Shown piece by piece: positions 250 through 21,783 of a stretch of 64,000 nucleotides of DNA; within the stretch, counting starts at the first letter, position 1; each line of letters begins with the position of its first letter. Both the position numbers and the translations under genes were made by a program. The stretch is taken from NCBI GenBank assembly GCA_005223125.1, contig NJBH01000007.1, positions 1 to 64,000 on the forward strand, read 5' to 3'. The notes below the pieces were generated by a model that did not search any database, was not told the origin of the DNA, and saw only the letters and a list, made by a program, of their open reading frames with translations. This DNA is from Promethearchaeota archaeon Loki_b32. Its GTDB lineage: Archaea > Asgardarchaeota > Lokiarchaeia > Sigyniarchaeales > SOKP01.

Positions 250-753
250 TTATTCGTTTTCAAATAAATTAATTAAATTTTTAAGCTGTAAATCCTTGAT
301 GACATTTTTCATAGTAGCTTTTCCTAAAGGTGTAACTTTTATTATTCCAAATTCATCAAACACCCTCAAATAATCGTTATTGATTAAAAAATGAACATCA
401 TTATCCCATACTTCTTTAAAGATTTCTTTCAAATCCTCAATTTTCATATTTTCATCAACTTCCTTACTTAAAGCAATTATTAGTGCTAAAACGCCATACT
501 GAGATGGTGTAATATTATCCTCCTTACCTTCCGACGTTAATACATAGTAGATATGATCTTGAAAGTGTGTTTTTATAAGTTCAAAACCAACTTTATTTAA
601 TAGTTCATAAACATCGTTAAAAATTGTATCTAAATCTAAATCTAAAGGGCGATCGTAGAGATTTTTCAGATCAGCTTTTCGAATCATTTTTTGAGGATTT
701 GTTAAAATGAGTGTTGCTATTCTTTTTACAAATTCTTCACGGTTATCTATCAT
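250..753 (-). CDS. KITE-family (Nse3/MAGE/ScpB-like) tandem winged-helix protein
   Basis: Pattern ILT..QKMIRKADL...IFNDVYELLNKVGFEL...YYVLT...YGVLALIIAL resembles the MAGE/Nse3 WH-A/WH-B consensus; C-terminal wing IKVTPLGK; lies downstream of an SMC-like gene. Confidence 0.6.
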   Translation of the reverse strand: MIDNREEFVKRIATLILTNPQKMIRKADLKNLYDRPLDLDLDTIFNDVYELLNKVGFELIKTHFQDHIYYVLTSEGKEDNITPSQYGVLALIIALSKEVDENMKIEDLKEIFKEVWDNDVHFLINNDYLRVFDEFGIIKVTPLGKATMKNVIKDLQLKNLINLFENE

Positions 754-772
754 TCTTATTTCATCGTTTATC

Positions 773-3441: not shown

Positions 3442-4827
3442 TTAAGTTAATGCTTTCCTTATATCATTCATTGCTTTTTCTAATTCGTTATTGTTAGAGT
3501 AAACTTTGATTTCAGCAAATCCATTCGATTTGTATGCAGTTGCTTTAAATGTACCATTTTTTATGGAAATATAATGATCATACTCCTTAATCGCTGCAAT
3601 ACCATTTAATTTTTCCACTAATAATTCTAAGGAGTTTCTTGTTCTAATCAACCCGACACGCATTTCAGGTTTTATGGGAGTTTGGCTAAATTCTTTCTCA
3701 AATATCATATTTTTGCATGTATTAACTTCAAACCGGAATGGAGAGTAATTTCGAACTATACAAGCACCTCTCATTAAGCGAGTATTGATACATTTTAAAC
3801 ATGAATTACAGCTATTATAATCAATAAATAAGGTATCCTCTTTAATACTCATTGATTTACAAAATGCAACACACGCACCACAGCCTACACAATTAAGAGC
3901 CTTTTCTACAAGAATTTTCACTTTTTGTCTTTGAAGCTTTTTCTTAATAACAATTGAATTCCGAATTATCTCATAGTCCTTTGATAAAATAGGAATTACA
4001 TTCTCCACTCTTTTAATTTGGTGTGAATTCTCTAAGTTTATAAATGTAATTTCAGGCATAACTTCAATTTTACCTTTTAATTCAGAGTTTTGTGGTCTTC
4101 TATAGGCTGTCCATTTATGATTTTTAATAAAGTCATCTATATTTTTAATACCAAGCCCCTTGCAGTATTTAAAAATAATTCTTAATGTGTTTTGGAGAAA
4201 TATATATTTGTCAGGGAAATGTTCTTCGATTATATTCCAATCTGTTTTAGTTTTAAAAGGGCAGGGCCAACATCCTACTCTTTTAAATCCTAATTTGTAC
4301 AATGGATTGGTTGGTAATTTGTTTGTGTGAATATATGCCCAAACTTCTTGATTTGACCAATCAAGGATAGGATTTATTTGCTTTATTTTAATATGTTTAT
4401 TCATATCGTTTTTCTTATAGTTCTTGCGTCGTGCATGTTCTTCCCCCCTCAAACCAGTTACATAAGATACGATTTTTTTTTCTCTAGCAAAAATAGCTAG
4501 AGGTGAAAATTTATAAACCTTACAACACCATCTCATTGATCTCGAAGGGAATCCAATTTTATGTACAAGTTCAAAAAATGGTACCGGAGCAGTCACTGAT
4601 TCCACCTTTATATCATAAAATTCTTCTACTCTTCTAATGTAATCAATAGTTTCTTGAAATTCCATAGTTGTATCGCAAAATACAACACTATCAATTCCGG
4701 TTTTAATGGCTAAATCAAGGGCGACTAGACTATCTTTACCCCCTGAAAAACATACACAAGCATTTTTATTATACTTTTTAAGAAAATTTATAGATGTCTG
4801 TTCTTTCAATTCAAAATCCTTTTTCAT
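3442..4827 (-). CDS. PAPS-reductase-family (DndC/TdpC-like) protein with C-terminal ferredoxin-type Cys motifs
   Basis: PP-loop FSGGKDS, RWCC, RVGCWPCP, then CVGCGACVAFC and CNSCLKC; probable ATG start at 4827 (ORF track gives 4881). Confidence 0.85.
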   Translation of the reverse strand: MKKDFELKEQTSINFLKKYNKNACVCFSGGKDSLVALDLAIKTGIDSVVFCDTTMEFQETIDYIRRVEEFYDIKVESVTAPVPFFELVHKIGFPSRSMRWCCKVYKFSPLAIFAREKKIVSYVTGLRGEEHARRKNYKKNDMNKHIKIKQINPILDWSNQEVWAYIHTNKLPTNPLYKLGFKRVGCWPCPFKTKTDWNIIEEHFPDKYIFLQNTLRIIFKYCKGLGIKNIDDFIKNHKWTAYRRPQNSELKGKIEVMPEITFINLENSHQIKRVENVIPILSKDYEIIRNSIVIKKKLQRQKVKILVEKALNCVGCGACVAFCKSMSIKEDTLFIDYNSCNSCLKCINTRLMRGACIVRNYSPFRFEVNTCKNMIFEKEFSQTPIKPEMRVGLIRTRNSLELLVEKLNGIAAIKEYDHYISIKNGTFKATAYKSNGFAEIKVYSNNNELEKAMNDIRKALT

Positions 4828-4919
4828 GAATAACAAAGGGATTTCGAATATATTAATTTTAATATCCAGGACATTAAGCAAATTTTATAAATTTATTTAG
4901 CAATTGGAATTAAAATATG

Positions 4920-6413
4920 TCAATGTTCCAGTAATTTTCTCCATTCATCATAAACTTTTCCGATTATTAATTCTTCAGGATTATATTGAGAATTTTGAGT
5001 ATAAATCTTTATTAAATTTTCGGTTAAAGTTTTTATATCAGCTTGATTGTTTTTTAAGTTTAGTAACAACGGACTGTTTACATTAAAACTTACTCTTTCA
5101 TCCTCTGAAATTTTTAGATTTTCTCTAACAATCTCCTTAAATCTTGTATTGCGATCAGAAGATAATGCAATTGAAATATGCAAAATTTTACCAATAAGCA
5201 TAGAAAAGCTAGAAAGTACTAACCTACTACGCAGTCTTGAATTTTGTACTAGTTGTTCCCATTCAGATGAATAAATATACTTGATGGCATTGAAGTAATC
5301 TTTAATCAATTCTAGATTAAACTTATAACGACTATCAATTTCAGGAATAGGTAAATCTTCCTTATTAAATGCCTCATATTCTAAAATTTCTTGGATTATA
5401 TAATTCATAGCCCCCCACGATATCAATTCTCCTTGAATTCTTGGTAATCCTCGATTTTTCATGTCAATTATACCGTTAAAAGGGCTATCTTTATCTGTAT
5501 TCAAATACCTAATTAGTGAGGAAATTAAAGCATCTTTTTTATCTTTCTTAGTCATTGTTTCTTGACTATAATCATCTAACGTGCCTATTAAATCCTTCCT
5601 GAAATTCTTAGGAAGATTTTGTGTTTTATTTGCATGTGAAAAAGTTCTTCGAATAAAATTAAGTTTAATTCCTGTATCCTTGTTGTAAAATTCCCCAATA
5701 GCAATAGTTACTGGTCCTACCAATTTCAGAGAATCTGGATCTTCTGAAGCTATAGCTATATTTTCTAAAGCCCACATTCTTTGCTGTCCATCTAAAATCC
5801 AGCCTGGTTTTTCAGCATCATATACATGGCCATCATAAGTAATAATTATAACTCCTATTTCTTGACCATTATAATCTCGAAGTTTAGTATATTCTATTCT
5901 GTTTAAATCAAAATAAATAATTGCTGTAGACCACATTTCAGCTTTGGAAGATTTTAACCCCTCCTTTAATTCCTCAACCCATTTGTCATGCCTTTGTCTT
6001 TGTACACCCATACCAATTTCGTTTATTTTATCTGGTGAAGTATACCTATGAATTCCACAAATTTTTCGTAGATCATAGAAATTAATTAGCCCAACACACT
6101 GAAATAAGCTGAATTTAAATTCATTATCTGTTTCAAAATTTTCTTCTCTTTCTAAATTCCTCTTCATCCATTTTCCTATAACAAGAATTTCTATGGTCCC
6201 TTCGTCTTCGATTTTTTTATACATATATAAATTTTTTGTTCCAGGCCCCTGATTGATTGGTTCAATTTCTCCTCTATTTACCATTTGAGGTATAATTGTT
6301 CTGGTAGTATTTATATTTAGTTCTGCAATTTGAGATATTTCTCTCGCTGTCAATGGGAGGTACGCCCTACTTAAAACTGATAAAATTTTATCTTGTGATG
6401 TTAAATCCGACAT
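4920..6413 (-). CDS. DGQHR-domain (DndB/DpdB-like) protein with N-terminal winged HTH
   Basis: GVQRQ motif, ILDGQQR core motif, F...N..Q; N-terminal PLTAREISQIAELNINTTR HTH. Confidence 0.85.
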   Translation of the reverse strand: MSDLTSQDKILSVLSRAYLPLTAREISQIAELNINTTRTIIPQMVNRGEIEPINQGPGTKNLYMYKKIEDEGTIEILVIGKWMKRNLEREENFETDNEFKFSLFQCVGLINFYDLRKICGIHRYTSPDKINEIGMGVQRQRHDKWVEELKEGLKSSKAEMWSTAIIYFDLNRIEYTKLRDYNGQEIGVIIITYDGHVYDAEKPGWILDGQQRMWALENIAIASEDPDSLKLVGPVTIAIGEFYNKDTGIKLNFIRRTFSHANKTQNLPKNFRKDLIGTLDDYSQETMTKKDKKDALISSLIRYLNTDKDSPFNGIIDMKNRGLPRIQGELISWGAMNYIIQEILEYEAFNKEDLPIPEIDSRYKFNLELIKDYFNAIKYIYSSEWEQLVQNSRLRSRLVLSSFSMLIGKILHISIALSSDRNTRFKEIVRENLKISEDERVSFNVNSPLLLNLKNNQADIKTLTENLIKIYTQNSQYNPEELIIGKVYDEWRKLLEH

Positions 6414-6573
6414 AATTTCACCTTTTATTTTTATTTACTATATATAATATAATAATTTTCATATAAAAATCTTATTTAAGTTAATAATATCGAAATATTT
6501 ATAAGTATTAATTTTAATTATATTATTAAAAAAGTTAATATATAATTATTAATTAATATGAGGAGGTAGTTAT

Positions 6574-6909
6574 TTGAGAAGTTCTACTTTTTTTTTAAAA
6601 TTTAAAGAAGAAAATGGCTTCAATTACAGGAAAATTGTAAATATCCTAAATAACTTAAAATTTGATCATATTATTTATTTTGATGAAATTAATTTTTTGA
6701 CAGAGGAATTCTTACACCAGTATTCTTTATTAGAACGCCAAATTATTATAAAAAATCTTATTTCTGAAAATTATTCTCAATTGGAAATTACATTTGAGAT
6801 ATTTTCGAAATTTTGGGGAGAAAAGAATGATCCATTATTACTTAATAAAACAACATTAGATGTGTTAGATTTAATCAAAAAATCTGAAGGATGTTTAGAA
6901 TTGTATTAA
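6574..6909 (+). CDS. Hypothetical protein
   Basis: TTG start preceded by GAGGAGGT Shine-Dalgarno; co-oriented with the HerA fusion gene. Confidence 0.6.
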   Translation: MRSSTFFLKFKEENGFNYRKIVNILNNLKFDHIIYFDEINFLTEEFLHQYSLLERQIIIKNLISENYSQLEITFEIFSKFWGEKNDPLLLNKTTLDVLDLIKKSEGCLELY

Positions 6910-6930
6910 TAAAATGAGAGGAGATATAAA

Positions 6931-9270
6931 ATGAATCAAATTAAAAAATCTGTTAGTGATTTATTAGATAAAGGTTATGGTAGACTAATATGTGAGCAGG
7001 GTGGAAAGCGGGGAAGAGTTTTACATCAAGTATCCACAACATATTATAAAAGAATTTTTAAAGGGGGGAATAAAAGAAATAAAGTGAATTATAGAATTTT
7101 CAGTCAGAATTTAACAAAGCAAAAGATAGATATCTTAGCAGATATCAAAAAGAATCCTGATTATGAAATATATCAAGAAGATGTTAAGATTCTCTTAGAT
7201 AAAATACATTATAACATACGTATGATTGCCAAAACACATAGTAAAATTAATTATGCGATTGTTATACCAAAAAAGATTGAAATTGAATTCTTTGGTGGAG
7301 AAGCTTCTTTTGAAGTTGAAGAGGTTGGAAAAATTGGTGGATTGAAAATCAATGCTCGAGTTGATTGTCTGATTGAGTTAGATTCAGAGAAATTTATAAT
7401 AAGAGAATTTAAATCATATGAATTAAACAAAGATGATGAAGTGAGCAATTTAAAATCAAAAAATCATAGAGAATTTATGCAAACTTGCCTATATGGAATT
7501 ATTTTTGAAAAAGCAAGGCATCAGAAATGCGGAGCTGTTCAATTAGTGTATTTTCCAAATAAAGTTGTCTCCTATAATTTTACGGATGATTTAAGGGAAA
7601 CTGCTATAAAATTTGCAATGAATACAGCATTTGAAGGATTTAACGGTATCAATTTTGAGTTTACCTCAGAAGATGATGAAGATCATAATGATGTTAAAGA
7701 TAGCCATACCAAAATGAGTGATTTGCATATTAAATCTGCATCTACCACCTCATTTAGTGATCCATGGAATCATTATAATACTAACGGGAAATCTGAAGAT
7801 GAGGAAGGTTGTCTAGGAAGCATTAACACTGTTAAGGGAAAACCTCTTGAGCTTGTTATGGGTGGTGATAACCAGATGAAAGGATATTTATATCCTAATA
7901 AAGCACACCTCATAAGAGATGGATATTGCGTGATTGTTGAAAAAGAGGAGGATGGAGTGAGAATAATGTGCATTGTTAAAAAAATAGAATGCTCTGAAGA
8001 CCATTTTCCTGGAGAAACTTCAAGTCACAAAGAAGATAACTATAAAATTACTTTGAACCCTGTTGGGCAATTTACACCAGAAGGTTATCAGGCCTTGAGA
8101 CCTCAAACGGTAATTGGTGGAAAAATCAAAATACCAACGCAAAATGAGTTCTGCGAATTTAAAAAAATTCCCCAAAATGGAATGGAAATTGCAAGCGTAG
8201 AAGGATTAAATGCAGGAATTCCATATTTACTTAAAATAAGAACATTATATCAAAGTGTGTTCATGAGTGGGCAACAAGGTTCTGGGAAAACATCTGCATT
8301 GAAAGTACTATCACTTTTAATTGCTCAAGAGAAAGATTCTCCTGCACAAATTATTCTTGATAATGAAGGAGAATATGGTGATTTAGCAATTATTCCTTCT
8401 ACCAAACAATCAGCGAAATTAATGAGAATACATAGAATTAATGCTCTTAATCTCAATAATTTTAGGTTTATTAATATAGGCACAGATGAGGGTTTTTGTC
8501 TTACATTAAAAGCGATTGATCCTGTTGATTTACCTTATTTCATACATGAATTAACGCCAATATCTCACGATACCTTGCAAACAATAATTTATGATATTAT
8601 TGAAGAAAATAAGGGAAAGGAGTTTACACTTCCAGAACTAAAGAAATTTATTTTCTATTATATGGAAAATGAGATATATAGCGCGACATCTGGAACTAAA
8701 TCCGCAATAAGAAGGGCGTTAAATTCCATCTCTCTAAGAATTTTCGATTTATCCGATGTAGAACCAATCGATTTTGAATCTATGTTAATCCCTGGCAAAA
8801 TAACAGTAATTAATTCATACAATTTGAGAGATTCACATCAAAGAATTGTAGGGTTATATTTATTAGCTATTCTTCATAAACGTGCTTTAAAAGGAAAAGA
8901 AAAGCTTAAGGTTTTCTTACATTTGGATGAAATCCAACGCCTCCTTCCCAAATCGAGATCACAATCAGATTCGGAATACTTAAAACGTATTGTTAAATTT
9001 TTAGACGAAATTGTACATCGCGGTAGGAAAAGGGACTATGGAGTAGCATTTGCAACCCAGAGTATCATGGATGTGAAAAAAGAAATCATTGATCTGTGTA
9101 ATACTAAAATTTTCCTTCAGACACAAGGAAGTGGAAGCAACTACTTGAGGGAGTACTTTAATAACAAGCAAGATATAGAACGATTAAAGCGCCTTCCCCA
9201 AGGACATGCTTATATTACGAGTAAGGGGAAGCATGATCCAGTAGAAATCAAATTTCCTTATATAAATTAA
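6931..9270 (+). CDS. PD-(D/E)xK (RecB/Cas4-like) nuclease fused to HerA/FtsK-family ATPase
   Basis: ARVDCLIE...IIREFKS...QTCLY nuclease motifs; Walker A GQQGSGKT, LDNEGEY, Walker B LHLDEIQ, RGRKRDYGVAFATQ. Confidence 0.85.
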   Translation: MNQIKKSVSDLLDKGYGRLICEQGGKRGRVLHQVSTTYYKRIFKGGNKRNKVNYRIFSQNLTKQKIDILADIKKNPDYEIYQEDVKILLDKIHYNIRMIAKTHSKINYAIVIPKKIEIEFFGGEASFEVEEVGKIGGLKINARVDCLIELDSEKFIIREFKSYELNKDDEVSNLKSKNHREFMQTCLYGIIFEKARHQKCGAVQLVYFPNKVVSYNFTDDLRETAIKFAMNTAFEGFNGINFEFTSEDDEDHNDVKDSHTKMSDLHIKSASTTSFSDPWNHYNTNGKSEDEEGCLGSINTVKGKPLELVMGGDNQMKGYLYPNKAHLIRDGYCVIVEKEEDGVRIMCIVKKIECSEDHFPGETSSHKEDNYKITLNPVGQFTPEGYQALRPQTVIGGKIKIPTQNEFCEFKKIPQNGMEIASVEGLNAGIPYLLKIRTLYQSVFMSGQQGSGKTSALKVLSLLIAQEKDSPAQIILDNEGEYGDLAIIPSTKQSAKLMRIHRINALNLNNFRFINIGTDEGFCLTLKAIDPVDLPYFIHELTPISHDTLQTIIYDIIEENKGKEFTLPELKKFIFYYMENEIYSATSGTKSAIRRALNSISLRIFDLSDVEPIDFESMLIPGKITVINSYNLRDSHQRIVGLYLLAILHKRALKGKEKLKVFLHLDEIQRLLPKSRSQSDSEYLKRIVKFLDEIVHRGRKRDYGVAFATQSIMDVKKEIIDLCNTKIFLQTQGSGSNYLREYFNNKQDIERLKRLPQGHAYITSKGKHDPVEIKFPYIN

Positions 9271-9380
9271 TTCTTTTCTTTTTTTTATTTTCTATGTATG
9301 TTATGTGGAAAGATATAAAAAAGAATAAAAAGAATAATATAAAAATGTTTTATAACAGAAGAAAATAGGGACTATTAGAA

Positions 9381-10136
9381 ATGTTGAAAAAAGAGAGAAT
9401 GGAAATAATAAAAGAACTAAAACATTTAAAAAACAGACAGAATGAAAGCAATAAGGAGGTAAAAAAGCTACAAAATGAATTTTCCTATATGAAAAGCAAT
9501 ATTAATAAAAATGATGATGAAATAATGAAGAATAGTCTCAAATTAAATGAGTTGTACAACAAGAAAAATGAACTTAAGAAGATTAATACGTCGCTCATTA
9601 ATGAAGAAATAGAAAAACGACGAGTTGAAATTGAGGCTTTATACGAATCTCAAAGTGATAAACTACTAAATTTAGGTGGATTTAAAAAAGATAAAGATAG
9701 GCTTAATGCTGTTTTAAAAGAATTGAAAAAGGCACAAGAAAAACAAACTTTATGTTGGATATGTGGTAGTAATAACATAGGCAGAGACCATATTGAAAAA
9801 GAGTTAGAAGATTTAAATAAACTAATTAATCCACTTCAGGATAAATTAGATTCTATTAGAAAAAAAATTAGGATAAGTAAAGAACAAATTCTAAAGAACC
9901 AAGAATTGAAAAAAAGAAAAAATTTAATTCTTGATATTCAAAAACATATCAAACCCATTTTTGAATATACAGCGAAACTACAAATGGATAAAGATATTCA
10001 AGAAGAAAAAATAGAGCGCATCATAGCAGAAATACCTGCAATTGAAGCAAACATAGAATCACGAGGAAAAAGGATACAGCAAAAGGAACTGGAATTAAAA
10101 GTTGTCGAAGATAAAATTAAAAAAATGTTAGACTGA
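9381..10136 (+). CDS. Headless coiled-coil protein with Rad50-type zinc hook (CWICG); paralogue of the arm of 14423..16432
   Basis: Colinear similarity to the central part of the SMC-like ATPase (KK.R.EII.E.K; L.EL.K..E....CW.CG...I.R..IE; IESR.K.I.Q); no Walker motifs. Confidence 0.75.
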   Translation: MLKKERMEIIKELKHLKNRQNESNKEVKKLQNEFSYMKSNINKNDDEIMKNSLKLNELYNKKNELKKINTSLINEEIEKRRVEIEALYESQSDKLLNLGGFKKDKDRLNAVLKELKKAQEKQTLCWICGSNNIGRDHIEKELEDLNKLINPLQDKLDSIRKKIRISKEQILKNQELKKRKNLILDIQKHIKPIFEYTAKLQMDKDIQEEKIERIIAEIPAIEANIESRGKRIQQKELELKVVEDKIKKMLD

Positions 10137-10162
10137 TATATTTAAGATTTTAAAAGATATAG

Positions 10163-10837
10163 GTGTTTAAAATAACAGCTTTAGAAAAATTAACGAGAAC
10201 AAAATTAATATCCTTAGCTAAAGAATGTGGTATTACGCTTAAAACTCAATATAAATTAAATAAATTAGATATTATAAGAATAATTAGAAAGTCTAAAATT
10301 GAAAAGAACAAGCTACAAGACATATTTTTACAATATGTAAATTTATATTACTGTGAATTTTGTAGACAGGATCATTATTTTAACAGCGATATAGGAAGAA
10401 GACATCTAAACTATACAAAAGAATTAAAAGCAGAAAGATATAGAGCTGCTAATCAAAAAACAATCAGATCGAGTAATAATCATGTCATTTGTAAACATTG
10501 TGGAAAGAAATATATGGATGAAAAGTTTTTAAAAAAGCATATAAATAATGCTCATTTTGCTCCAATCGATTTACACAGAATGTCTCTTAAAGAAGCAATT
10601 TTTTATGTAGAGGAAAAATTAGAGGAGTGTATTGATCGTGGAATAGGTGGCTTAAAATTAATACATGGATATCATCATGGCACAATACTTCAAGAATATT
10701 TCCGTTCTGAAAAGTTCAAAATAGATATGAAGCGCGTTGGGCTTTTTATAAGTATATCCAATATTAGAGACTTAGGTTATACACTAGTAAAAATTAATAT
10801 GGAAGAGCTTCAAAAATGTAAGTATCATCTATCTTAA
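10163..10837 (+). CDS. Smr-domain protein with N-terminal helix-extension-helix-like segment and zinc fingers
   Basis: IDLHRMSLKEA...LKLIHGYHHG Smr motif; CEFC and CKHCGKKY...LKKHINNAH C2H2 finger. Confidence 0.8.
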   Translation: MFKITALEKLTRTKLISLAKECGITLKTQYKLNKLDIIRIIRKSKIEKNKLQDIFLQYVNLYYCEFCRQDHYFNSDIGRRHLNYTKELKAERYRAANQKTIRSSNNHVICKHCGKKYMDEKFLKKHINNAHFAPIDLHRMSLKEAIFYVEEKLEECIDRGIGGLKLIHGYHHGTILQEYFRSEKFKIDMKRVGLFISISNIRDLGYTLVKINMEELQKCKYHLS

Positions 10838-10908
10838 ATAGGTTAGGAAATGTTGAAAATGATATAAAATTAACAAATTATAATAGAAATATTAAAATTA
10901 ATTATTAT

Positions 10909-11565
10909 TTGAAGAATCTAAAAGGGTCAATTTTGAAAAAAGAAGAAAGATCTTTCGATAATAGAGCTGAATTTAGAAAAAGCGTAAGAGATTTATTGAA
11001 GAAACATAAGAGATTAGATCGAATCAAACTTTTTTGCCCTTCTTGTGAATCTCAATCAATATCTATTGCAATTAACAAAAATGTAACCGAAGTAAAATGC
11101 TCTACCTGTTTTATTACAGAAAGGATAAAAAAAAAGTACATCGCTTACGATCTAATTGATATATATGGAGATTTCCTTGATCTAATTAATGCAGACCAAG
11201 AGATTCAGAAATTAGAAAAGCGTATTATAGAATTAAAGAAAGAAAGTAAGTATGAATTAAAAAAAGATAACGAGTATAGTAGTAAAGTGCTCTGCTACTC
11301 AAAAATATCGGATATATGTAGGGCAAAAACGGCATCACTAGAGTTGTTACTAGAGGACAAGGACGATGTTGATAAGGAGGAGAAAGATAATTGGAAAATA
11401 AAATTAGAAAAGTATAAGAGACTTGAAAAAGAAGCAGAGAATAACTTAGAAAGAGAAAATAAAATCAATGAAGAATCTTTATTTACTGAAAGTGAAAAAA
11501 ATGATAAAAAGGAAGAGAAGAAGATAGTTGATATATTTTCAGACCCGGGGTTTTTAGATTTTTAA
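10909..11565 (+). CDS. Diverged paralogue of the extended Elf1 at 23497..24075
   Basis: FCPSC...VKCSTC zinc ribbon, IDIYGDFLD, EESLFTESE, DIFSDPGFLDF all match the Elf1 gene. Confidence 0.8.
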   Translation: MKNLKGSILKKEERSFDNRAEFRKSVRDLLKKHKRLDRIKLFCPSCESQSISIAINKNVTEVKCSTCFITERIKKKYIAYDLIDIYGDFLDLINADQEIQKLEKRIIELKKESKYELKKDNEYSSKVLCYSKISDICRAKTASLELLLEDKDDVDKEEKDNWKIKLEKYKRLEKEAENNLERENKINEESLFTESEKNDKKEEKKIVDIFSDPGFLDF

Positions 11566-11620
11566 GAAGAATTGAAAAACTAATCGAAAAACAAGAAAAA
11601 AGCTAAGGGGAGAAGTAAAA

Positions 11621-11938
11621 ATACCAAAAAGAAAGGTAAAAGACCCCATTGTCATTAGGAGGAATATTGATGAAGCTTTAAAGCGAATTCACCGATCTCA
11701 AGGAGTTTTTTACTGTGCGTGTGGAATTTATCGTTCAAAAAAAAAGAATTTAATTTACCATCTTAGTCAAAATCCTGATTGTGTTTCAAGATTACTAAAA
11801 ATAGAATTCGATAAAGGAGAAACAAGTTTGTATAAATTTTCTTCCTTATCAAGTTTAGAAAATAATATATGTGATATTTGTGGTCGAGAATGCGCTAATG
11901 AAGCGGGTGTAAGGATTCATAAGAGCAAAGTACATTGA
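11621..11938 (+). CDS. Zinc-finger protein (C2HC-like plus C2H2) not listed in the ORF track; probable ATA start
   Basis: Frame open 11576-11938: ...YCACG...IYHLSQNPDC...CDICGRECANEAGVRIHKSKVH*; GGGGAG lies 8 nt before ATA-CCA-AAA-AGA-AAG. Confidence 0.6.
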   Translation: MPKRKVKDPIVIRRNIDEALKRIHRSQGVFYCACGIYRSKKKNLIYHLSQNPDCVSRLLKIEFDKGETSLYKFSSLSSLENNICDICGRECANEAGVRIHKSKVH

Positions 11939-12122
11939 GTGTGAATATTAAAATTTGAAGAAAGTAATTTTCATCCCAAAAAAAAAGTTAAAAAGAAAGC
12001 GCGAACTTCTAAATGAAAAGAGATTCTCTCAACATTATCTACAATATTACATAAAAGTTCAAGATTTTCTTCAAGGTCTTCTATTTTTTTTTAAGTATAT
12101 CTTTTTGTCTTTTTGGATCCAT

Positions 12123-13175
12123 TTAAAAATATCTCTCTTTAGTGCTTTTTATAAATTCCCATAAATATCTTAGACGAGATTTTTCCATCATTTTATCAAT
12201 GAATGTCTCATAAGCACCCCAACCTTGTTTAATCAACTCATGAGATTTCTCTTCTTCCTGTTCCATTACCCATTTATTATGAATTGCTCTAATTTTCCAA
12301 TCAGAACATAAATGTTTCCATCTGCGATATCCATGTTTGGATATTTTTCGGCATTCGGGGCACCTACATTCGACTAATTTTTTCTTTTCATCATCAGAAA
12401 AGATTTTATTATAAGTCAATCCATTTTTAGTTTTTAATCCAAAAGTAGCACTTCCATTACCTGCATATCTTTCTGCTGTTTGGGGTAATACAATTTTTCC
12501 ATATGCTGCTTTTCTTCTATAACCTGAAGAATCAGAACTTTTTATTTCGCAAAAAGCTGCAAAATGATAAGTTAATGGAGATGCTCCAACACCAAAAACA
12601 TGAATATCAATATCTAATTTTTTTCCTAATGAACTAAGGTATAGAAATGCCTCGTAAATATTTTTATTTGGTTGGCGATCACCAAAAAAGCCCTTGAAGT
12701 TTTCTTTAAGGATAAAAGCACTTCCTAAGGCAATATAGTTAAAATCCTTTTTTTGTAAAACATGAATGTTTTTATCTAAAGTAGTTTTATTCCATCCATG
12801 TAATGCGGGAATAAGATTAAGATTTGTACTATTATCCCAATAATCAATGTTTTCTATGGTTTTCTGCCAATTGTTCTTCATCTTCCTAATATCCATTTGA
12901 GGATCTAAAGGGTAATCAAAAGGAACTGTATATCTTGGTTTTAATTTCTCTTGAATATCAATAATTGTATCTAAATTAATAGATACCTTTTTCTTCTTTT
13001 GATGATAATTATTTTTAAAGATAGCAAAAGCACCATTGTCTAAAAATAAATTTTCATATGGATATTTTATTTTAGGCTCATCTGATTTCAAAAAGTTATA
13101 TACACTATCCATGACATTGCCATGTTGTATTCCTTCTATGAAATTATTTCCTAATTCCCCTGCCCAATAGTCCAT
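12123..13175 (-). CDS. tRNA-guanine transglycosylase-fold protein without PUA domain (DpdA-like candidate)
   Basis: LFLDNGAF, VPFDYP, IALGS, IHVFGVG, SSDSS (catalytic Asp positions), Zn site CRCPEC...HN. Confidence 0.8.
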   Translation of the reverse strand: MDYWAGELGNNFIEGIQHGNVMDSVYNFLKSDEPKIKYPYENLFLDNGAFAIFKNNYHQKKKKVSINLDTIIDIQEKLKPRYTVPFDYPLDPQMDIRKMKNNWQKTIENIDYWDNSTNLNLIPALHGWNKTTLDKNIHVLQKKDFNYIALGSAFILKENFKGFFGDRQPNKNIYEAFLYLSSLGKKLDIDIHVFGVGASPLTYHFAAFCEIKSSDSSGYRRKAAYGKIVLPQTAERYAGNGSATFGLKTKNGLTYNKIFSDDEKKKLVECRCPECRKISKHGYRRWKHLCSDWKIRAIHNKWVMEQEEEKSHELIKQGWGAYETFIDKMMEKSRLRYLWEFIKSTKERYF

Positions 13176-13183
13176 AAAAATCC

Positions 13184-13786
13184 TTATTTTACTGACTTAA
13201 GTTTTTCATCTAATTTTTTTAAATTATCTTCTAAAATTAATAATAAATCAGTGTCTGCTGTCTCATGCAATTTTCCAGATATTTTTATAACTTCAAAATT
13301 TAAACCTAATTTATTGAAAGCAATTTCTAATGATTTAAGCGATTCTGAGCCATTTCTTAAATAAGATATGAATTTAATATAATCATTAATTTTTTTAGCG
13401 TTAAAAAAACCAAATATTCTTTTACTTATAATCTCAATATATTCTTTTTTAATTTTATCAGTTTCAAATAGAGGATTCCAATCATAAGAATCAAAAGGAT
13501 ATCTATCACAGAATTCATAGGGTATTATACCTGCATTGGAGATTATGATTTTTTGGATATTTTTATATTTATCAATAACTTCATTAAAAGCACGATGGAT
13601 TGGTGAATTATAATAAGGTTTTATAGCAGCACACGGTAAAAATATTATGGTTTTGGTATTCTCTTTTATTATATAATCCTCCTTAAAATAGGATTGCCAA
13701 ATCTCAAAATGAGGATGGATCAATTGTGCCTTCCCCACGCCATTTAATCCAATGAAATCTTTTTCTAATATATCTGGTGGTTTCAT
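13184..13786 (-). CDS. Stand-alone ArcS catalytic-domain (DUF5591-like) protein
   Basis: PCAAIKPYYNSPIH matches the ArcS motif PC-X3-KPY-X2-S-X2-H; also GIIPYE...YPFDSYDW. Confidence 0.75.
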   Translation of the reverse strand: MKPPDILEKDFIGLNGVGKAQLIHPHFEIWQSYFKEDYIIKENTKTIIFLPCAAIKPYYNSPIHRAFNEVIDKYKNIQKIIISNAGIIPYEFCDRYPFDSYDWNPLFETDKIKKEYIEIISKRIFGFFNAKKINDYIKFISYLRNGSESLKSLEIAFNKLGLNFEVIKISGKLHETADTDLLLILEDNLKKLDEKLKSVK

Positions 13787-13869: not shown

Positions 13870-14328
13870 TTAAATCTTTTCTGACGGATCATCCCAAACC
13901 TTTCCAATAATAAAATCATGATTAGTAACATGAGAAAAATATGATGGTTTCTTGTTTGTTATTATATTTCTAATGTAATTATCAAATGTAATCACAAATT
14001 CTTTCAAATGTTCTAATTTACCTAAATATTCATAAAGAATCATAGCCCCAACAGCAGAATTTCTTAATTTTGGTTTAGATATTCCTGGTATATCAATTTT
14101 TAATGGATTTTTAATTAGTGAATAGTGAAGTGGAGTAATTATTTCAGTATTATAATTACTCATTTCTTTCATTTTCTTCGGAATATTTGGGCTGCCTCTA
14201 CCGCTTGGATATTTTGGGGGACATATTCCTAAAAAAGCTTGTCTAATTGAATTTGGAACATTTTTCGATTTTTGTGAATCATATTGAAATTCAATAATTA
14301 CTAAAATATATCTAGTTTTATATTTCAT
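13870..14328 (-). CDS. Hypothetical protein, paralogue of 16553..17014
   Basis: Shared Y..V.IEF.YDS..SKN.PN..R.AFLGI.PPK.P.GRGSP and SLIK.P.KID.PG....KL.N.AVG..ILYEY.G.LE. Confidence 0.75.
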   Translation of the reverse strand: MKYKTRYILVIIEFQYDSQKSKNVPNSIRQAFLGICPPKYPSGRGSPNIPKKMKEMSNYNTEIITPLHYSLIKNPLKIDIPGISKPKLRNSAVGAMILYEYLGKLEHLKEFVITFDNYIRNIITNKKPSYFSHVTNHDFIIGKVWDDPSEKI

Positions 14329-14422
14329 GTAATATGGTGATGGTATTTTAAATTCTTCTATTTTTAAACTTCATTTTAGGTTAAAAAGTTTGAAAATGAA
14401 GATATTTAATATTAATACAAAT

Positions 14423-16432
14423 CTAAATCTCTTCTTTTATTAAATCTTCATCAGTAACCCTGGTTAATATCACAAACCAATCATTTTCCTTAGCTATATT
14501 CTTTAAATAATTATAGAAAATTTCTCTACGTTCATTATCCATTTTTAAAATTATATCATCTCCAACAATAAAGGGTATCTCTGGATTATATGTTTCTTTA
14601 GCAGATATTTGTAATAATGATGAAACAATAACTCTCTCACCCGCGCTCAGAGAATTTATTGCTTGTGGATTAGGATTACCTTTTCTAATAATTTTTAATT
14701 TATTATTATCTTCAATATCTAGATATATTTTTTCGAACTTCGGCAATTTAAGTTCCTCTATTATTTTTTCAATATTTTTATTGAATTTATGTGCGGCTCC
14801 TTCTCGTTGTTCTTTTATATTTTTTTCTAGATGAGAATTAATAGTAGTAAATATTTCATCAAATTCTTGAACAATTTTTTTTGCTTTTAGAAGATCAAAT
14901 TCTTGTTTTAAAATTTCTATACTTTTACAATCATCTATATTTAATTCTAAATTTGAGATTTGGTTTTCAATAGCACCCTTTTTCGTATTTTGTTTTTTTG
15001 TTTCTTCCCTTGTTTTGTTTATTTGAGTATCATCAATTATTTGTTTCTCGAGTTCATTTCTTTTTTCTACTAATTGATTAATGGTTTTCTTCCGACTCTC
15101 AATGATTTTTGTAAACTTCTTTACTTCCATATCTTCCTTATTTTTTTGTTCTTCTTTACTACTATTTTCTTCTGCAAGTTCTATTAATTTACTTCTTAAT
15201 AATTCAATTTTTTTCTTTACATCAGGAAGGTTTGCTTTTTTTGCTTTTTCTTTCTGTTTAATATTTATAATTTCCTTATTATCTTCGATCTGAGTTTCTA
15301 AATCTCTATAATTTTTGCGATAAGGAGTTAATTCATCTTGTGTACTTTTTAAATCATTTTCAATATCGTTTCTATCTATTTCTTTACCCCCACAAACCCA
15401 ACAGATTACTTTAGTTTCTTTGGTCTTATCCAATTCTCTTAAAATACCTTCATACTTCTTCTCGTGGTTTTCTAGTATACTAATCTCGGGTAATAATAAC
15501 TTTTGTTTTTCAAAATTCTTCTCATTTTCTTCATGTAGTTGATTTATTTCATTATTTAATTTACTCATATCTATTTTCATATAATCGTTTTTTTCCTGTT
15601 CCAATTTATCCATATTTTTTGTTTCATCTTCAATTGTATTTTTGTTTTCTTTTATCTTCTTATCTAAATCATTAACAGTTTTCTTTAGACTTAGGAATTT
15701 CTTCTCAGTATCTGAATTCAATCTTTGTTTATCCTTGATTTCTTCAATAATTTCCTTACGTTTTTTTTTCATTTCTGTATTCGATTCAATTTTTTCTAGC
15801 TCCTTTTCAATATTAACTTCCAGCTGTCCTATTTTCTTTATAACTTCCTCAAGTTCCGTTTTATTCTTTTTTAATTCTCCCTCAAACTTCTTTTTATTAT
15901 TCTCCTTTGTCTCAATTTCTTCCTTTTTAGCAGTAATTAAATCTGAATAAGATCCAACAATGTCTTCTATTGATTCATAATCTTTTGCTAAGGACATTTC
16001 AGTTACTATCCATGAAAAATCAGATAATCCATGATCAATATAATTCTGTATTTTAGAATTTTCTACTAGCATACTACAATAAATAAATTTTTGGTTACCA
16101 GGAATATTTATTTTTTCAGAACCATCTCGATTTAGTTCAATAAATTTTTTAACATCATCATAATGAAGTTCAATATTGGCTTTTTCTTTATTATAATTTA
16201 AGAGGGGTGAAAATATTGCATTATCTGCTTTGGCAATTCCAAAGCTTATAGCAGTATTCCTAATTTCTTCTGAGTTTATTGGAATTGATAAAGCTAATGC
16301 ACAAGATTTAAGTATTCTGCTTTTGCCAGAAGCTGTTCGTCCTCTGATCTCTGTTACTACGCCACTATTAAATTCCCAAGTTTCTTCCCCTTCTCTTTGC
16401 CCAATATTCACTAATTTTAAGACTGCTTTCAT
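14423..16432 (-). CDS. Archaea-specific SMC-related ATPase (ClsN/Sph/Rad50-like) with zinc hook
   Basis: N-terminal NIG...GRTASGKS Walker A, long coiled coils, CWVCG hook, LSAGER signature, PFIVGDD Walker B. Confidence 0.85.
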   Translation of the reverse strand: MKAVLKLVNIGQREGEETWEFNSGVVTEIRGRTASGKSRILKSCALALSIPINSEEIRNTAISFGIAKADNAIFSPLLNYNKEKANIELHYDDVKKFIELNRDGSEKINIPGNQKFIYCSMLVENSKIQNYIDHGLSDFSWIVTEMSLAKDYESIEDIVGSYSDLITAKKEEIETKENNKKKFEGELKKNKTELEEVIKKIGQLEVNIEKELEKIESNTEMKKKRKEIIEEIKDKQRLNSDTEKKFLSLKKTVNDLDKKIKENKNTIEDETKNMDKLEQEKNDYMKIDMSKLNNEINQLHEENEKNFEKQKLLLPEISILENHEKKYEGILRELDKTKETKVICWVCGGKEIDRNDIENDLKSTQDELTPYRKNYRDLETQIEDNKEIINIKQKEKAKKANLPDVKKKIELLRSKLIELAEENSSKEEQKNKEDMEVKKFTKIIESRKKTINQLVEKRNELEKQIIDDTQINKTREETKKQNTKKGAIENQISNLELNIDDCKSIEILKQEFDLLKAKKIVQEFDEIFTTINSHLEKNIKEQREGAAHKFNKNIEKIIEELKLPKFEKIYLDIEDNNKLKIIRKGNPNPQAINSLSAGERVIVSSLLQISAKETYNPEIPFIVGDDIILKMDNERREIFYNYLKNIAKENDWFVILTRVTDEDLIKEEI

Positions 16433-16566
16433 TGTTGCTTTTCACCAAGATATTTCTCTATTTTATTTCGAAATTCTTTAATAAAAATTGCTTCATCTAA
16501 ACCTTCTCGAACTGAAGATTCAATATACTCAACAATTTCATCAATTAGTTTTTTATTTTGCGACAT
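16429..16566 (-). CDS. 45-aa helical microprotein coupled to the SMC-like gene (not in ORF track)
   Basis: MSQNKKLIDEIVEYIESSVREGLDEAIFIKEFRNKIEKYLGEKQQ*; stop overlaps the SMC ATG (ATGA); start overlaps the upstream gene. Confidence 0.6.
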   Translation of the reverse strand: MSQNKKLIDEIVEYIESSVREGLDEAIFIKEFRNKIEKYLGEKQQ

Positions 16567-17014
16567 CCTTTAAATCATAACCTATAATTAGTTTAATTGA
16601 AGTGATTTCTGAATACCATTTTGGTTTTTCACTTTTTTTTTCTAAAAATTCAGCTATCTTAAGGCAACAATCTTTATAATCTTCAAGAAGACCAATATAT
16701 TCATAAAGAATAATTGTTCCTACAGCTGTATTTTTTAATTTATATTCTCTTTCTCCAGGCAAATCGATTTTTACTGGCTTCTTAATTAAAGAGAAGTAGA
16801 TTGGATATAGAACTTCTTCATTAGGATTGCATAAGTTATTAAGATCTCTTAAAATTGGACTCCCTCTCCCTTTTGGGTGTTTAGGAGGATATATCCCTAA
16901 AAATGCTTCTCTAACTTCGTTTGGTATATTTTTACTACTCTTAGAGTCATATTTAAACTCAATAACTACAGAGAGATATTTTGTATCATAGTCTAAATCA
17001 AACACTTTTGCCAC
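16553..17014 (-). CDS. Hypothetical protein, paralogue of 13870..14328
   Basis: High similarity to 13870..14328; GTG start. Confidence 0.75.
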   Translation of the reverse strand: MAKVFDLDYDTKYLSVVIEFKYDSKSSKNIPNEVREAFLGIYPPKHPKGRGSPILRDLNNLCNPNEEVLYPIYFSLIKKPVKIDLPGEREYKLKNTAVGTIILYEYIGLLEDYKDCCLKIAEFLEKKSEKPKWYSEITSIKLIIGYDLKDVAK

Positions 17015-17024
17015 CTTTTTCTAT

Positions 17025-18214
17025 TTAATCTTTTAAAATATTCTTATCTTTTAATATTTTACTTAAATCTTTTATTATTTTAATGAAATTAACGAATTCA
17101 TCGTTACTCGATTGAAGATAATCATTTTTTAAACCCTCTCGATGTTCTAGGATTTCTTTAATCAAACTTAAGATTGGTATTAATTTTGATGAATGATTAA
17201 CTAATTCATCGAAATCTTTAACATTGATATCTAAATCTAGTTTTTGTAAGTTATCATCACTTTCGTTTAAATTTTCATAACTTGTAACTGGCGTACTAAG
17301 GATTTCTTGCCGATCAACATGAATTTCCGTCCCTCCAACAAGTTCTAATGATCGGTATAGCATGTTAAAATCTAATTTTTCGGTGATTGGAAATGCACCA
17401 ACAGCTTTGAATAATGCTACTCTAATACCTCTTTCAATATCAGAACCAGAATACCCATGGGTTAATGTTATCACCCCATTTACATCCTGTCGTCTTAATT
17501 CTTCTATTAAAAAATCATCATTTCTTATAAGATCACTACTTTCTTCAATCTCTTTCTCAATTGAATAAATTTTTTCGTATTCTATATCGATTTCATCAAA
17601 TATTAAAGCATCAACATGTATTTCAGCATCACTTATTCTGTTTATGAATGATTTTAACATTTTTGTTCTAAACTCGTAGCTAAGGGAAGACCTTTATAAT
17701 TAACAATATCGATTGTCTGTAAAAAGGCAATCACAGCTCGTTTAATCTCCCCAACTTCATGTACATTAGACCTTTCGGACCCAATAGCATCAATTTCATC
17801 AAAGAATAATATGAAGTTACCATTCCCTTCAGCTATATCCGCAGCTGTTTCTATCACTTGACGAATATTTCTTATTGTATCCCCTAATAATGATGAAACC
17901 AATCTATTAGATTCTACAACACAAACTGGAATCTTATATTTTTGAGCAAAAGCCCTTGTTAATGAGGTTTTTCCTGTACCTGGGGGACCAAATAATAGCA
18001 TTGTTAAATTGGGTGCTAATTTTGTATTTTTTAATCTCTCAGCGAAACGTTCATAATTATCTAATGCTCTAAAAAAATCTTCTAATCTTTCCTTTTGTTC
18101 TTCATTACCAATAATATCATCTACTTCTTCAATTATATCCATTTCAAAGTAAACAGTACCATAATTACCTAGCATTGCTTTAATTTCTTCATGATTATAT
18201 TTATCTTGAGAAAT
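17025..18214 (-). pseudogene. AAA+ ATPase broken by an internal deletion/frameshift near 17660-17680
   Basis: GPPGTGKT and FFDEIDAIG in 17654..18175; the lid (THGYSGSDIER) is in another frame (17025..17660); the sensor-1/Arg-finger segment is missing between GLPLA and YEFRTKML. Confidence 0.7.
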
Positions 18215-18228
18215 TTTTACTCATCCTC

Positions 18229-19533
18229 TTATTTTTTTTCTTTATTAATTTTTTCGCAAAATAATGCTATTTCATTAATTAAATCTTTCAAATTATCAAT
18301 TTGAGAACCAATAAAATTGAAGATCTCCTTTCTGTATTGTACACTATCCCGGATCTTCATTTTATCCATTCCTAAATAATTTGGAAAACATGACAATTTC
18401 ATTAAATTTGGTAAAATTTTTTCATTAGTTTGTAAATCTTTAAAAATACTATAGAAGATATTATCATCTGAAAGTTTCCATTTTAAAATACCCATATAAA
18501 TTAATAACGCAAAATTCATTGAGATCCAGTTTACCAATTCTTTTGATAAAAATCCCCTTCTTATAGAAGCAATGGCTAAATAATATAATAAGAGTGTTTC
18601 ATTACTAAATTGAGGGATATATCTTGTTTTACCATCCTTCTGAATATCTTCTCTTAAGAAATTATTAGCTAATAAAATATCAACAAATGATTCTTGTGGA
18701 GCTAAAAAAATCTCATCGATTATTCGTAACCCTATTCTTTCAGCAATACTTTTTACCGCTTCTTCTTCAGCATTAGCTATTGAGTCAATATATGGCTCAA
18801 ATACGTCATTTGTTAAAAGCATTGGAATCTCATAATTAGTTTTTTCAGGGAAATCACCATAATTGGGGTCTAAATTGTAAAGAGAAGTAATATTATTAAT
18901 AATTTGATACACTTTTGGAGAAACACTGGGAATAATGAAATAATCTGGATTTTTTAATTTATCTCGATAAAATGTATGTGTTAATAATATATGCCTTTGA
19001 CACTCATAATAGTCTTTAGATTTATCTAATAATTTCTTATAAATCGTTTGTAAATTGAATCCTCTTGGAAATACAATTTCTTCAATAAACTTAACTAATC
19101 GATATAGATATGTATTTTGGAAGTTTTTTTGATCAGGATTAGTAATTTGCTGTAAAATTTTTAGAGCTTCAATGGATTCTTTTAAATGCTCTATAATAAA
19201 ATCTTTTATCTCAATTGTTGAGATTTTATTTCTAAATTTAATTATAAAATTCTTTATTATCTCATAAATATTAGATCTATACATTGCTGAAAATTCTGAT
19301 AAGGCTCTTACTTTTCGAATGTTCCTTTTTTCCTCTTCTTCACGTATTTTATCCAATATTTCTAACTCAGGATCTAAAAATAACTCGTGATCTAGATCGA
19401 TAATAATCCTACGAGTTTCTCTCAATATAGGTCTCATATGGCTAATGAAGGTTAGATATCTAGGTAAAATGTCTGTCCACTTTTCCCTCCTTCTACCCGG
19501 CCTAATCCTTTCCCTAAATTTCTTACTACTAAT
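18229..19533 (-). CDS. Hypothetical protein (ORF-track ATG at 19437; frame extends to an SD-preceded ATT at 19533)
   Basis: Long ORF inside the minus-strand gene run; no motif recognised. Confidence 0.65.
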   Translation of the reverse strand: MSSKKFRERIRPGRRREKWTDILPRYLTFISHMRPILRETRRIIIDLDHELFLDPELEILDKIREEEEKRNIRKVRALSEFSAMYRSNIYEIIKNFIIKFRNKISTIEIKDFIIEHLKESIEALKILQQITNPDQKNFQNTYLYRLVKFIEEIVFPRGFNLQTIYKKLLDKSKDYYECQRHILLTHTFYRDKLKNPDYFIIPSVSPKVYQIINNITSLYNLDPNYGDFPEKTNYEIPMLLTNDVFEPYIDSIANAEEEAVKSIAERIGLRIIDEIFLAPQESFVDILLANNFLREDIQKDGKTRYIPQFSNETLLLYYLAIASIRRGFLSKELVNWISMNFALLIYMGILKWKLSDDNIFYSIFKDLQTNEKILPNLMKLSCFPNYLGMDKMKIRDSVQYRKEIFNFIGSQIDNLKDLINEIALFCEKINKEKK

Positions 19534-19559
19534 TATTATCTCCTCATTTTCTTTAATTC

Positions 19560-20795
19560 TTATGTATCTTCATCACGATCAAGACCTAAAGTTACCTCTG
19601 TGAATATATTGGCAATTTCTACAAAGATTGGTATTTCAACTCGACATAAATTCCCAAGGATCCATTTATTTACATCTTTTAGAAGAAATCTTATTTGATT
19701 ATGAATTTTTTTATTTATATCAGTATCAATTATATTATTCAACCAACGCCCCCCACCTAGCCTAAAAGCAACAATTTTTATTAGAGGTTCGAATAACGAT
19801 TCTAAAATTTGTCTCATCATCCATGATTTTGGAATTATACTCATGTTGTCATTATCAAAAGATGGATCTTTTAATATTGGGTGATTGACTCTTACAGTAA
19901 GCTTAGGCATAAAGCTTAATAGGAGGATCAGGGCAAAAATAGCCGATATACCATTTATGGTAAAGGAACCTCCTATTTTTTCGAGATCTTTTCGATTAAT
20001 CGCTAAATTTGCTAAAAAAAGGCTAATAAACACATTTCTATCGAATGCTTCTGAAATATGAGCATATACTAAATTGTTTTTCTCACTTTTTTTATTGATA
20101 CTGATACCGAGCTCAATTTCCCCTCCATCCTCTCCTATTTCATTCCTATTTTCTTCATTATCAGTTTTATCGATGATTATATATTTTTCCTGCAAAATTG
20201 CTAGTATTCCTGGAGGAAATGTATAGAAAGTATAAACTTTTTTCTCGCTTGTTCTCTTATCTCTATCAACTATATGTTCTTTTGACACTAATCCAAATAA
20301 ATTGATGAGTTCCTGAAGTTGTTTTTTAATATAGCTTCTGGGGTTATTTGGATCTCCGAACATTGCATAAAATTGGTGATCAACTATATGAAAATCATTT
20401 CTATTAGCAAAGGCTTCTACAATTCTATCTATTATTGGTCCTTGAGCATAGGATGCAATCGCTTTAGCTTTTGAAGTTATGAAACCATTTAATAATTCAT
20501 TTATGATAAAATCTTGCTCGTGAGTCCTAGATTTGAGGATTTTACTAAAGGCCACAGCTAAATTCGATGTATTAGGAAAGAAAGCATTTTGAATCGTGTT
20601 ATCTATTGCTCTTTTGAGAAGCTCTCCATCATTTCTAGGAAATTGAGTCCGTAGAATATCTAATCTATCTAATAGAGCATCTCTAGCTCCAGGAATATTT
20701 TCAACATTTTTGTTTTTTAATTCTACAATTGCTTCTTCTAATCCTTCAGAAAAAGCTTCCAATAATTCCTCCCATTTAGATTCTAGAATTGACAT
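19560..20795 (-). CDS. Hypothetical protein
   Basis: 411-aa ORF, co-oriented with its neighbours. Confidence 0.7.
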   Translation of the reverse strand: MSILESKWEELLEAFSEGLEEAIVELKNKNVENIPGARDALLDRLDILRTQFPRNDGELLKRAIDNTIQNAFFPNTSNLAVAFSKILKSRTHEQDFIINELLNGFITSKAKAIASYAQGPIIDRIVEAFANRNDFHIVDHQFYAMFGDPNNPRSYIKKQLQELINLFGLVSKEHIVDRDKRTSEKKVYTFYTFPPGILAILQEKYIIIDKTDNEENRNEIGEDGGEIELGISINKKSEKNNLVYAHISEAFDRNVFISLFLANLAINRKDLEKIGGSFTINGISAIFALILLLSFMPKLTVRVNHPILKDPSFDNDNMSIIPKSWMMRQILESLFEPLIKIVAFRLGGGRWLNNIIDTDINKKIHNQIRFLLKDVNKWILGNLCRVEIPIFVEIANIFTEVTLGLDRDEDT

Positions 20796-20824
20796 TTAAA
20801 TTAACTCTCTATCATTTTTTTTCC

Positions 20825-21778: not shown

Positions 21779-21783
21779 TATAA

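Follow-up and report, generated by a model that had tools for sequence, protein, structure and literature searches.

A rare, apparently undescribed and probable DNA modification/restriction locus made of two separable modules in a Lokiarchaeal genome

What does a Lokiarchaeon do with a locus that brings together a DGQHR protein, a PAPS-reductase-family enzyme, a relative of the tRNA-guanine transglycosylases (TGT), a stand-alone ArcS domain and a nuclease fused to a HerA ATPase? These genes, along with one for an Smr protein, were named in an earlier note on this DNA, and all are real and lie where it placed them in the window, by which we mean the whole 64,000-nt stretch analyzed (contig NJBH01000007.1, positions 1 to 64,000) from the 95.5% complete metagenome-assembled genome (MAG) of Promethearchaeota archaeon Loki_b32. 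Close homologues carry the annotation Promethearchaeota/Lokiarchaeota. They belong to an island that is apparently a conserved, rare and so far undescribed DNA modification/restriction locus. It consists of two separable modules: a core of PAPS reductase, SMC-like ATPase and a 153-aa protein, and a pair formed by the TGT and the stand-alone ArcS domain (ArcS2). A role in defense or DNA modification is very likely. For the whole we favor, on balance, a restriction-modification-like defense of separable modules, encoded by one rare allele at a fixed locus of Lokiarchaea.

The empty site sets the limits of the island. The host AAA+ gene (here 17025–18175) directly adjoins the gene at 2323–3219 in all 20 relatives that were sampled, so the insert spans about 3.3–17.0 kb. 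This is wider than the earlier extent of 3442–13786, which enclosed genuine island genes and cut off the constant core genes at 13870–17014, namely a 153-aa gene, a 45-aa open reading frame (ORF), the SMC-like ATPase and a second, 152-aa copy. The order at the site is AAA, 153, 45, SMC, (152), ArcS2, TGT, then HerA and a 111-aa gene on the opposite strand, then DGQHR and PAPS. It recurs at the same site in four other Lokiarchaeal loci (L009, L010, L022 and L182; L numbers denote loci, G numbers genomes), and partial copies are found on several further contigs. The five loci with the window architecture span two GTDB genera, and given this recurrence the clustering is not due to chance. The island is rare in the class (2 of 161 genomes, as are the TGT and the DGQHR gene, 2/161 each). 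No integrase was seen among the ORFs and there is no compositional signal, the island's GC content of 28% being like that of the rest of the window. We found no description of the architecture in the literature covered, outside which lie most subscription papers and the Tdp paper; to this extent the suggestion that it might be undescribed stands.

That the modules are separable is evident from loci that carry only one of them. PAPS, SMC and 153-aa genes occur without TGT in six cases: L125 (Helarchaeota), L126, L128, L180, G059 and G056. The last is a 99% complete congener with the same core and site, in which a C5 methylase (PF00145, 1e-58) and a glycosylase fragment follow the second 153-aa gene, in the slot where the window has ArcS2-TGT. 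This replacement might mean that TGT and ArcS2 are an independent cassette piled into a defense hotspot and functionally unrelated to both the PAPS/SMC core and the HerA nuclease; the pair also adjoins many other systems (NurA-HerA, DpdJ/K, McrBC), and a tree places the window TGT inside a set of Loki NurA-HerA-linked copies, though its long branches and weak deep support lead us to claim neither donor nor order of events. We nevertheless consider such piling somewhat unlikely. Three different gene orders connect the pair with the core, which suggests a tie beyond chance: the window type, PglZ-PAPS-ArcS2-TGT...DGQHR-AAA-SMC in L028, and PAPS-ArcS2-TGT in L029. The pair immediately follows SMC or PAPS on the same strand, and it was kept while SMC alleles diverged to 46–52% identity.

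What might the core do? Its PAPS-reductase-fold PP-loop enzyme (3442..4827, minus strand) lies in an ORF of 3442–4881, with homologues pointing to the ATG at 4827 as the likely start. It matches PF01507 (E 1e-40) and Fer4, carries the motifs SGGKDS, RWCC and GCWPCP and a C-terminal ferredoxin cysteine set, and is the only PF01507 protein in the genome. The best defense models are BrxP (PADLOC, 1.3e-52) and SspD, with DndC weak (6e-6), so that the DndC-like label given to it earlier has to be replaced by BrxP/SspD-like; a ferredoxin-like tail fits this subtype (PMC12839542). The second core protein (14423..16432, minus strand) is an ASRP/Rad50-type SMC-like ABC ATPase with Walker A/B, signature, coiled coil and CxxC zinc hook, the features expected of ASRP SMC-related proteins (PMC9389158); it matches NF045487 at 3e-58 and 198 bits, below the cut-off of 300. 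A 45-aa helical ORF (16429..16566, minus strand) overlaps its start (ATGA) and precedes SMC in nine other loci too; it usually accompanies the core. The 153-aa domain is present as copy 1 (16553..17014) and the 152-aa copy 2 (13870..14328), both on the minus strand, and is doubled within one polypeptide in L028, L128, L180 and G059. It belongs to no known family; its structure model shows the widespread ferredoxin-like fold (best Z 8.0) with no specific match, and its Atlas matches are unnamed. We had considered a DndE-like ribbon-helix-helix protein, which this fold rejects. PglZ goes with the PAPS/SMC core in five loci (L028, L125, L126, L128 and L180), among which L028 alone also has the TGT pair, and NifU adjoins the PAPS gene in L180.

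The mark made by this module is, a little more probably than otherwise, a phosphorothioate. This best guess from sequence follows from the BrxP/SspD-type enzyme, a candidate for inserting sulfur, from the chemistry of BrxP, which with BrxC yields phosphorothioate (PMC12914056), and from the precedent of Dnd, where ABC-ATPase cores recruit either phosphorothioation enzymes or cytosine methylases (PMC10853773). Candidate sulfur donors exist in the host, with two strong matches to PF00266 (cysteine desulfurase family), one of them beside a NifU match. The enzyme could instead adenylate DNA, or supply or modify a base or cofactor: DndC models match weakly, the island has no cysteine desulfurase, and its SMC protein is of ASRP type with no DndD match. 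We judge this less likely than thiolation, and on the improbable side, in view of the BrxP/SspD-type architecture, the association with PglZ, the adjacency of NifU and the BrxP plus BrxC result.

Comparison with known systems places the core near two of them. Like BREX type 4 and Ssp (PMC12914056, PMC12839542), it has a PAPS reductase of BrxP type with a C-terminal ferredoxin-like region, and sister loci add PglZ and a small STAND ATPase. There is no DUF4007 fusion, BrxC, BrxL and DUF4007 have no match in the island, which has an SMC-like ABC ATPase instead, and PglZ has none in the host MAG. With Dnd (PMC10853773) it shares the logic of a coiled-coil ABC ATPase core that recruits a PP-loop enzyme or a cytosine methylase, as well as an optional DndB-like protein and nearby nucleases; it differs in its ASRP-type ATPase and in having ferredoxin-like 153-aa and helical 45-aa partners rather than a ribbon-helix-helix DndE. 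Orthology to Dnd is not indicated, with DndC at 21 bits against a cut-off of 290 and an SMC protein that matches ASRP/LmuB and not DndD. As supposed earlier, the island holds no canonical dndD/E, dpdC-K or pbe genes. By analogy, its mode of action would join phosphorothioation in the manner of BREX4, Ssp or Dnd with a DpdA+ArcS2 pair of viral type.

The second module begins with a PUA-less, archaeal DpdA-like TGT of 350 aa (12123..13175, minus strand; PF01702, 38.7 bits). Its model (pLDDT 88) is a TGT TIM barrel with the aspartate pair and zinc site of the superfamily; D46, D87, D215 and the zinc ligands C270/C272/C275/H299 are invariant in 45 homologues. Next to it is a stand-alone ArcS C1 domain (ArcS2-like, DUF5591; 13184..13786, minus strand) with an exact PC-X3-KPY-X2-S-X2-H motif. 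The TGT scores 23.7 bits with TIGR00432 (ArcTGT), whose cut-off is 350, and has no PUA or C1-C3 domains. The host's own tRNA enzymes, ArcTGT (contig C61) and ArcS, are encoded separately, and the pair is therefore extra; the view that the TGT is not the tRNA-specific ArcTGT is upheld.

Does this TGT act on DNA? We think it likely from its sequence relationships and its neighbors. The profile of its family gives 87 bits to STSV2_15 of the Sulfolobus virus STSV2, which scores best among relatives whose systems have had a DNA mark measured, versus 29 bits to the host ArcTGT. STSV2 DNA contains dCDG, and in Vibrio phage nt-1 DpdA2 with a stand-alone ArcS2 leads to deoxyarchaeosine (dG+) in DNA (PMC10516641). 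The family has 172 matches, including ones in Lokiarchaea, Helarchaeota, Freyarchaeum, Methanobacteriales and Nitrosopumilaceae. Across 90 of its loci, which are kin and not independent counts, the neighbors are PCNA-like in 48, DpdJ/K-like in 17 and NurA/ORC-type ATPases in 15, and 70 of the 90 have some DNA-system partner. These relations, the nt-1 precedent and the C5 methylase swap in G056 all argue for DNA as the substrate. dG+ is a tentative proposal for the product, and the identity of the inserted base is uncertain.

Several observations weigh against the reading favored here. The TGT model is nearest to ArcTGT (Z 26.6) and further from bacterial DpdA 7UI4 (Z 21.2), and DpdA hidden Markov models give it only 14–16 bits. 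An invariant Ser152 occupies the position in its base pocket that is Gly in TGTs, and its substrate may therefore differ. The host preQ0 genes look incomplete: QueD and Vut_1 have no match in the MAG, and QueC is a C-terminal remnant only (G000:C21:57632-57950), despite the presence of ArcTGT and ArcS; three congeners have QueD. In the core, the PAPS protein also matches uncharacterized archaeal PRK13795 proteins. Finally, the AAA+ gene next to the island is broken in this assembly.

Some of these points would suit a TGT with another substrate: RNA (viral RNA, or tRNA at a second position) or, as for Cap10 in type IV CBASS, a deazaguanine linked to protein. The closest fold is that of ArcTGT, the zinc site is kept, and Cap10 also matches (Z 19.2). 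PUA-less TGTs of bacteria and eukaryotes act on tRNA, and in some Asgard families the inheritance of more distant PUA-less TGTs looks vertical. This alternative is nonetheless quite improbable given the patchy distribution, DNA-acting neighbors such as PCNA paralogues and DpdJ/K, the exchange with a DNA methylase and the higher profile score of the STSV2 TGT. Cap10 needs Cap9 (10.1101/2025.04.06.647259), and the island has no QueC or cyclase.

With DNA preferred as the target, the closest counterpart is the viral DpdA+ArcS2 pair (STSV2, nt-1; PMC10516641), which likewise has a PUA-less TGT adjoining a stand-alone DUF5591 protein with the ArcS motif. The island differs in being a chromosomal cell defense locus, in its kept zinc site, in the linkage to PAPS, SMC and nuclease genes, and in its reversed gene order. 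Bacterial Dpd (DpdABC plus DpdD-K; PMC10164549, PMC5699537) shares a TGT paralogue and a nearby DGQQR ParB-like NTPase, and other members of the TGT family carry DpdJ/K-like genes. In contrast to Dpd, the island has ArcS2 instead of DpdC and an optional, wHTH-fused DGQHR protein; its TGT scores 15.9 bits with the DpdA family NF041059 (cut-off 200), and PADLOC gave only a distant DpdB-like match among the island proteins, with no dpdC or dpdD-K. BREX-related capture (BRC) systems (PMC12839542) have HerA/FtsK with TGT and PglZ in composite defense loci, some of them archaeal. Of the BRC components PglZ, DUF6079, STAND, DUF4007 and HerA, the island has only HerA, together with the TGT. BRC has DUF6079, DUF4007 and GNAT without DpdB, and its listed components include no PAPS reductase, SMC or ArcS2.

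Relatives of the TGT occur in other settings as well. Many adjoin divergent PCNA paralogues, stand-alone or fused to a C-terminal wHTH-like domain (L017:11061-12365; L054, L062, L095, L100; L014:8689-9414), with genes for an ATPase, a DpdJ-like helicase and a DpdK-like PLD protein often coming next; these may be a clamp-guided archaeal Dpd system. The 415-aa gene beside many TGT homologues was tried as ArcS- or DpdB-like and rejected, being PCNA fused to such a wHTH-like domain. A recurrent module in Loki, Freyarchaeum and methanogens (L012, L014, L017, L130, L131) has TGT, mostly with ArcS2, a wHTH-like 262-aa protein, a 1100–1500-aa ORC/Cdc6-like ATPase, NurA and HerA; in L017, QueC and a glutamine amidotransferase are encoded close by as well. 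In some Loki loci (L176, L177, L131:7235-7744) a DUF6884-like gene replaces ArcS2 upstream of a related TGT. More distant PUA-less TGTs (L141-L148, L163-L167) occur in the majority of genomes in certain Asgard families (5/5, 5/7, 7/12), some adjoining ArcS2-like or housekeeping genes, and may be vertically inherited with another role. On the Haloplanus plasmid NZ_CP098519 (L138:5566-17973), a distant TGT with queC/E/D, STAND, BREX-type ATPase, HerA-like and GNAT genes shows the published BRC layout. A scan of viral contigs gave one partial match and thus no evidence for a viral family. Methanobacterium virus PhiF1 (MK994522; L133:962-1612) encodes an ArcS2 45% identical to the window's, and no TGT was found in its genome; since Methanothermobacter has a TGT/ArcS2 pair, this gene may be a captured counter-defense gene.

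Is the DGQHR protein what holds the two modules together? The gene (4920..6413, minus strand), the only one of its kind in the genome, encodes a ParB/DndB-like NTPase with an N-terminal, Fur-like winged helix-turn-helix (wHTH; E 0.004). It scores 79 bits with TIGR03187 (cut-off 58.85), and likewise 79 bits with DpdB, far under that model's cut-off of 300; the motif, at residue 208, spells DGQQR. It is present in all six evaluable loci that hold TGT plus the PAPS/SMC core (the window, L009, L010, L022, L182 and L028), which makes a helper role in two-module loci possible. A stronger claim would be that it is a DpdB-like ATPase needed by the TGT and also serving the PAPS reductase in a Tdp-like manner, the whole being one obligate machine. 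Its presence in all six loci would fit, as would the DGQQR motif found in DpdB, whose ATPase Salmonella DpdA needs (PMC10164549). This is unlikely: among the TGT-family loci that are 12 kb or longer, 24 of 28 are without DGQHR, L125, L126, L128 and L180 have it without TGT, and it was not found in the core-bearing genomes G056 and G059. Given these arms without DGQHR, the Fur-like wHTH and the conserved divergent promoter region, it is probably an optional DndB-like regulator or helper ATPase, a better fit than an obligate shared motor. The divergent intergenic region (6414..6573) is conserved in six loci and contains a 10-bp inverted repeat (6481–6490/6520–6529), a weak operator candidate because the region is AT-rich. 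The earlier note's interpretation thus survives as to a DNA modification/restriction locus; its DGQHR hub does not, at least as an obligate one, and it missed the core of ASRP ATPase, 45-aa and 153-aa proteins. TdpA and TdpB are DGQHR proteins, and the adjacency of the gene to a PAPS-reductase Fe-S enzyme recalls TdpABC; the island has one, optional DGQHR gene only, plus an SMC core. A passage in PMC12914056 credits TdpC alone with making phosphorothioate.

Divergent from the DGQHR gene is the candidate restriction effector, a PD-(D/E)xK nuclease-HerA/FtsK ATPase fusion (6931..9270, plus strand; PADLOC HerA, 3e-17) with a conserved N-terminal D..E-x-K..Q-x-x-x-Y motif, a central linker domain, Walker A/B and RGRK. 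It is 84–89% identical in four other loci and also present in the TGT-less L125; that it reads one of the two marks is conceivable, if slightly short of an even chance. A 111-aa protein of no family (6574..6909, plus strand) lies upstream of it in all complete window-type loci. Beyond it are accessory genes (9381..11565, plus strand) for a 251-aa coiled coil (27% identical to the island SMC), the Smr protein (10163–10837, PF01713 above cut-off) and an Elf1-like paralogue, which shares 43% identity with the core copy at 23482. All three were rejected as core parts, being absent in L009 and L022; L045 has them. Between the Elf1-like gene and the TGT (11500–12120), about 550 bp hold short zinc-finger-like ORF fragments, possibly a decayed gene.

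Taken together, the locus probably puts two marks on the cell's own DNA, backbone sulfur and a modified guanine. In the mechanism we propose, the SMC-like ATPase would scan DNA, and the PP-loop/Fe-S enzyme would adenylate the backbone and insert sulfur from a host cysteine desulfurase. A swappable slot, the swap itself being observed, holds TGT and ArcS2 here and the C5 methylase with glycosylase fragment in G056. The TGT would exchange a DNA guanine for a 7-deazaguanine (preQ0 or 7-carboxy-7-deazaguanine, CDG) through a covalent D215 intermediate, and ArcS2 would tailor the inserted base, most likely to dG+. The wHTH-DGQHR protein would regulate or help as an option, the divergently transcribed nuclease-HerA would cut unmarked DNA, and alleles would spread via recombination in flanking host genes. 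The boldest version is rather unlikely in full: an Asgard chromosome doubly marked with phosphorothioate and DNA archaeosine or another 7-deazaguanine, one SMC-like scanning core delivering interchangeable writers (PAPS reductase, TGT/ArcS2 or C5 methylase), and a TGT of an undescribed pan-archaeal family elsewhere coupled to dedicated PCNA paralogues.

A modified guanine of this kind has so far been known mainly from tRNA and viruses. In the literature searched, reports of dG+ in DNA are confined to viruses and those of cellular deazaguanine systems to bacteria; if confirmed, a TGT/ArcS2 family on archaeal chromosomes would extend deazaguanine DNA chemistry to archaeal genomes, including those of Asgards. 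An ASRP protein central to a modification system would likewise give a function to a largely uncharacterized SMC family. The TGT family is directly testable, with a homologue (46% identity) annotated in the cultured Methanobacterium formicicum BRM9, and a TGT/ArcS2 pair in Methanothermobacter sp. EMTCatA1.

How the island moves can be read from its flanks. RpoB of the window is 98% identical to that of congener G085 and 93% to that of G131, whereas the flanking gene at 21784–23373 is 46% identical to G085 versus 71% to the island-bearing G131; from 23482 onward this pattern reverses. Flank trees and identities indicate host genes traveling with the island (18229..23373, minus strand): trees of three flanking genes unite island carriers across genera, in conflict with RpoB, and the gene on the other side (2323–3219) also groups with carriers. 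Identities within the island are mosaic (SMC 46–84%, DGQHR 67–88%, PAPS 67–84%). We infer homologous recombination of a tract of about 23 kb, which is what diversifying selection on the locus would lead one to expect. The AAA+ gene at the right boundary (17025..18175, minus strand), an island-type long allele, lacks about 89 nt near 17675 (17654–17690) compared with L009 and L023 and is split there, being either a pseudogene or the product of an assembly error. The flanking Loki operon (250–3219 and 17025–23373) comprises coiled-coil, zinc-ribbon, AAA+ and unknown genes, of which Pfam and PADLOC assign only the AAA+; it diverges much faster than RpoB and may itself be an undescribed DNA or defense machine.

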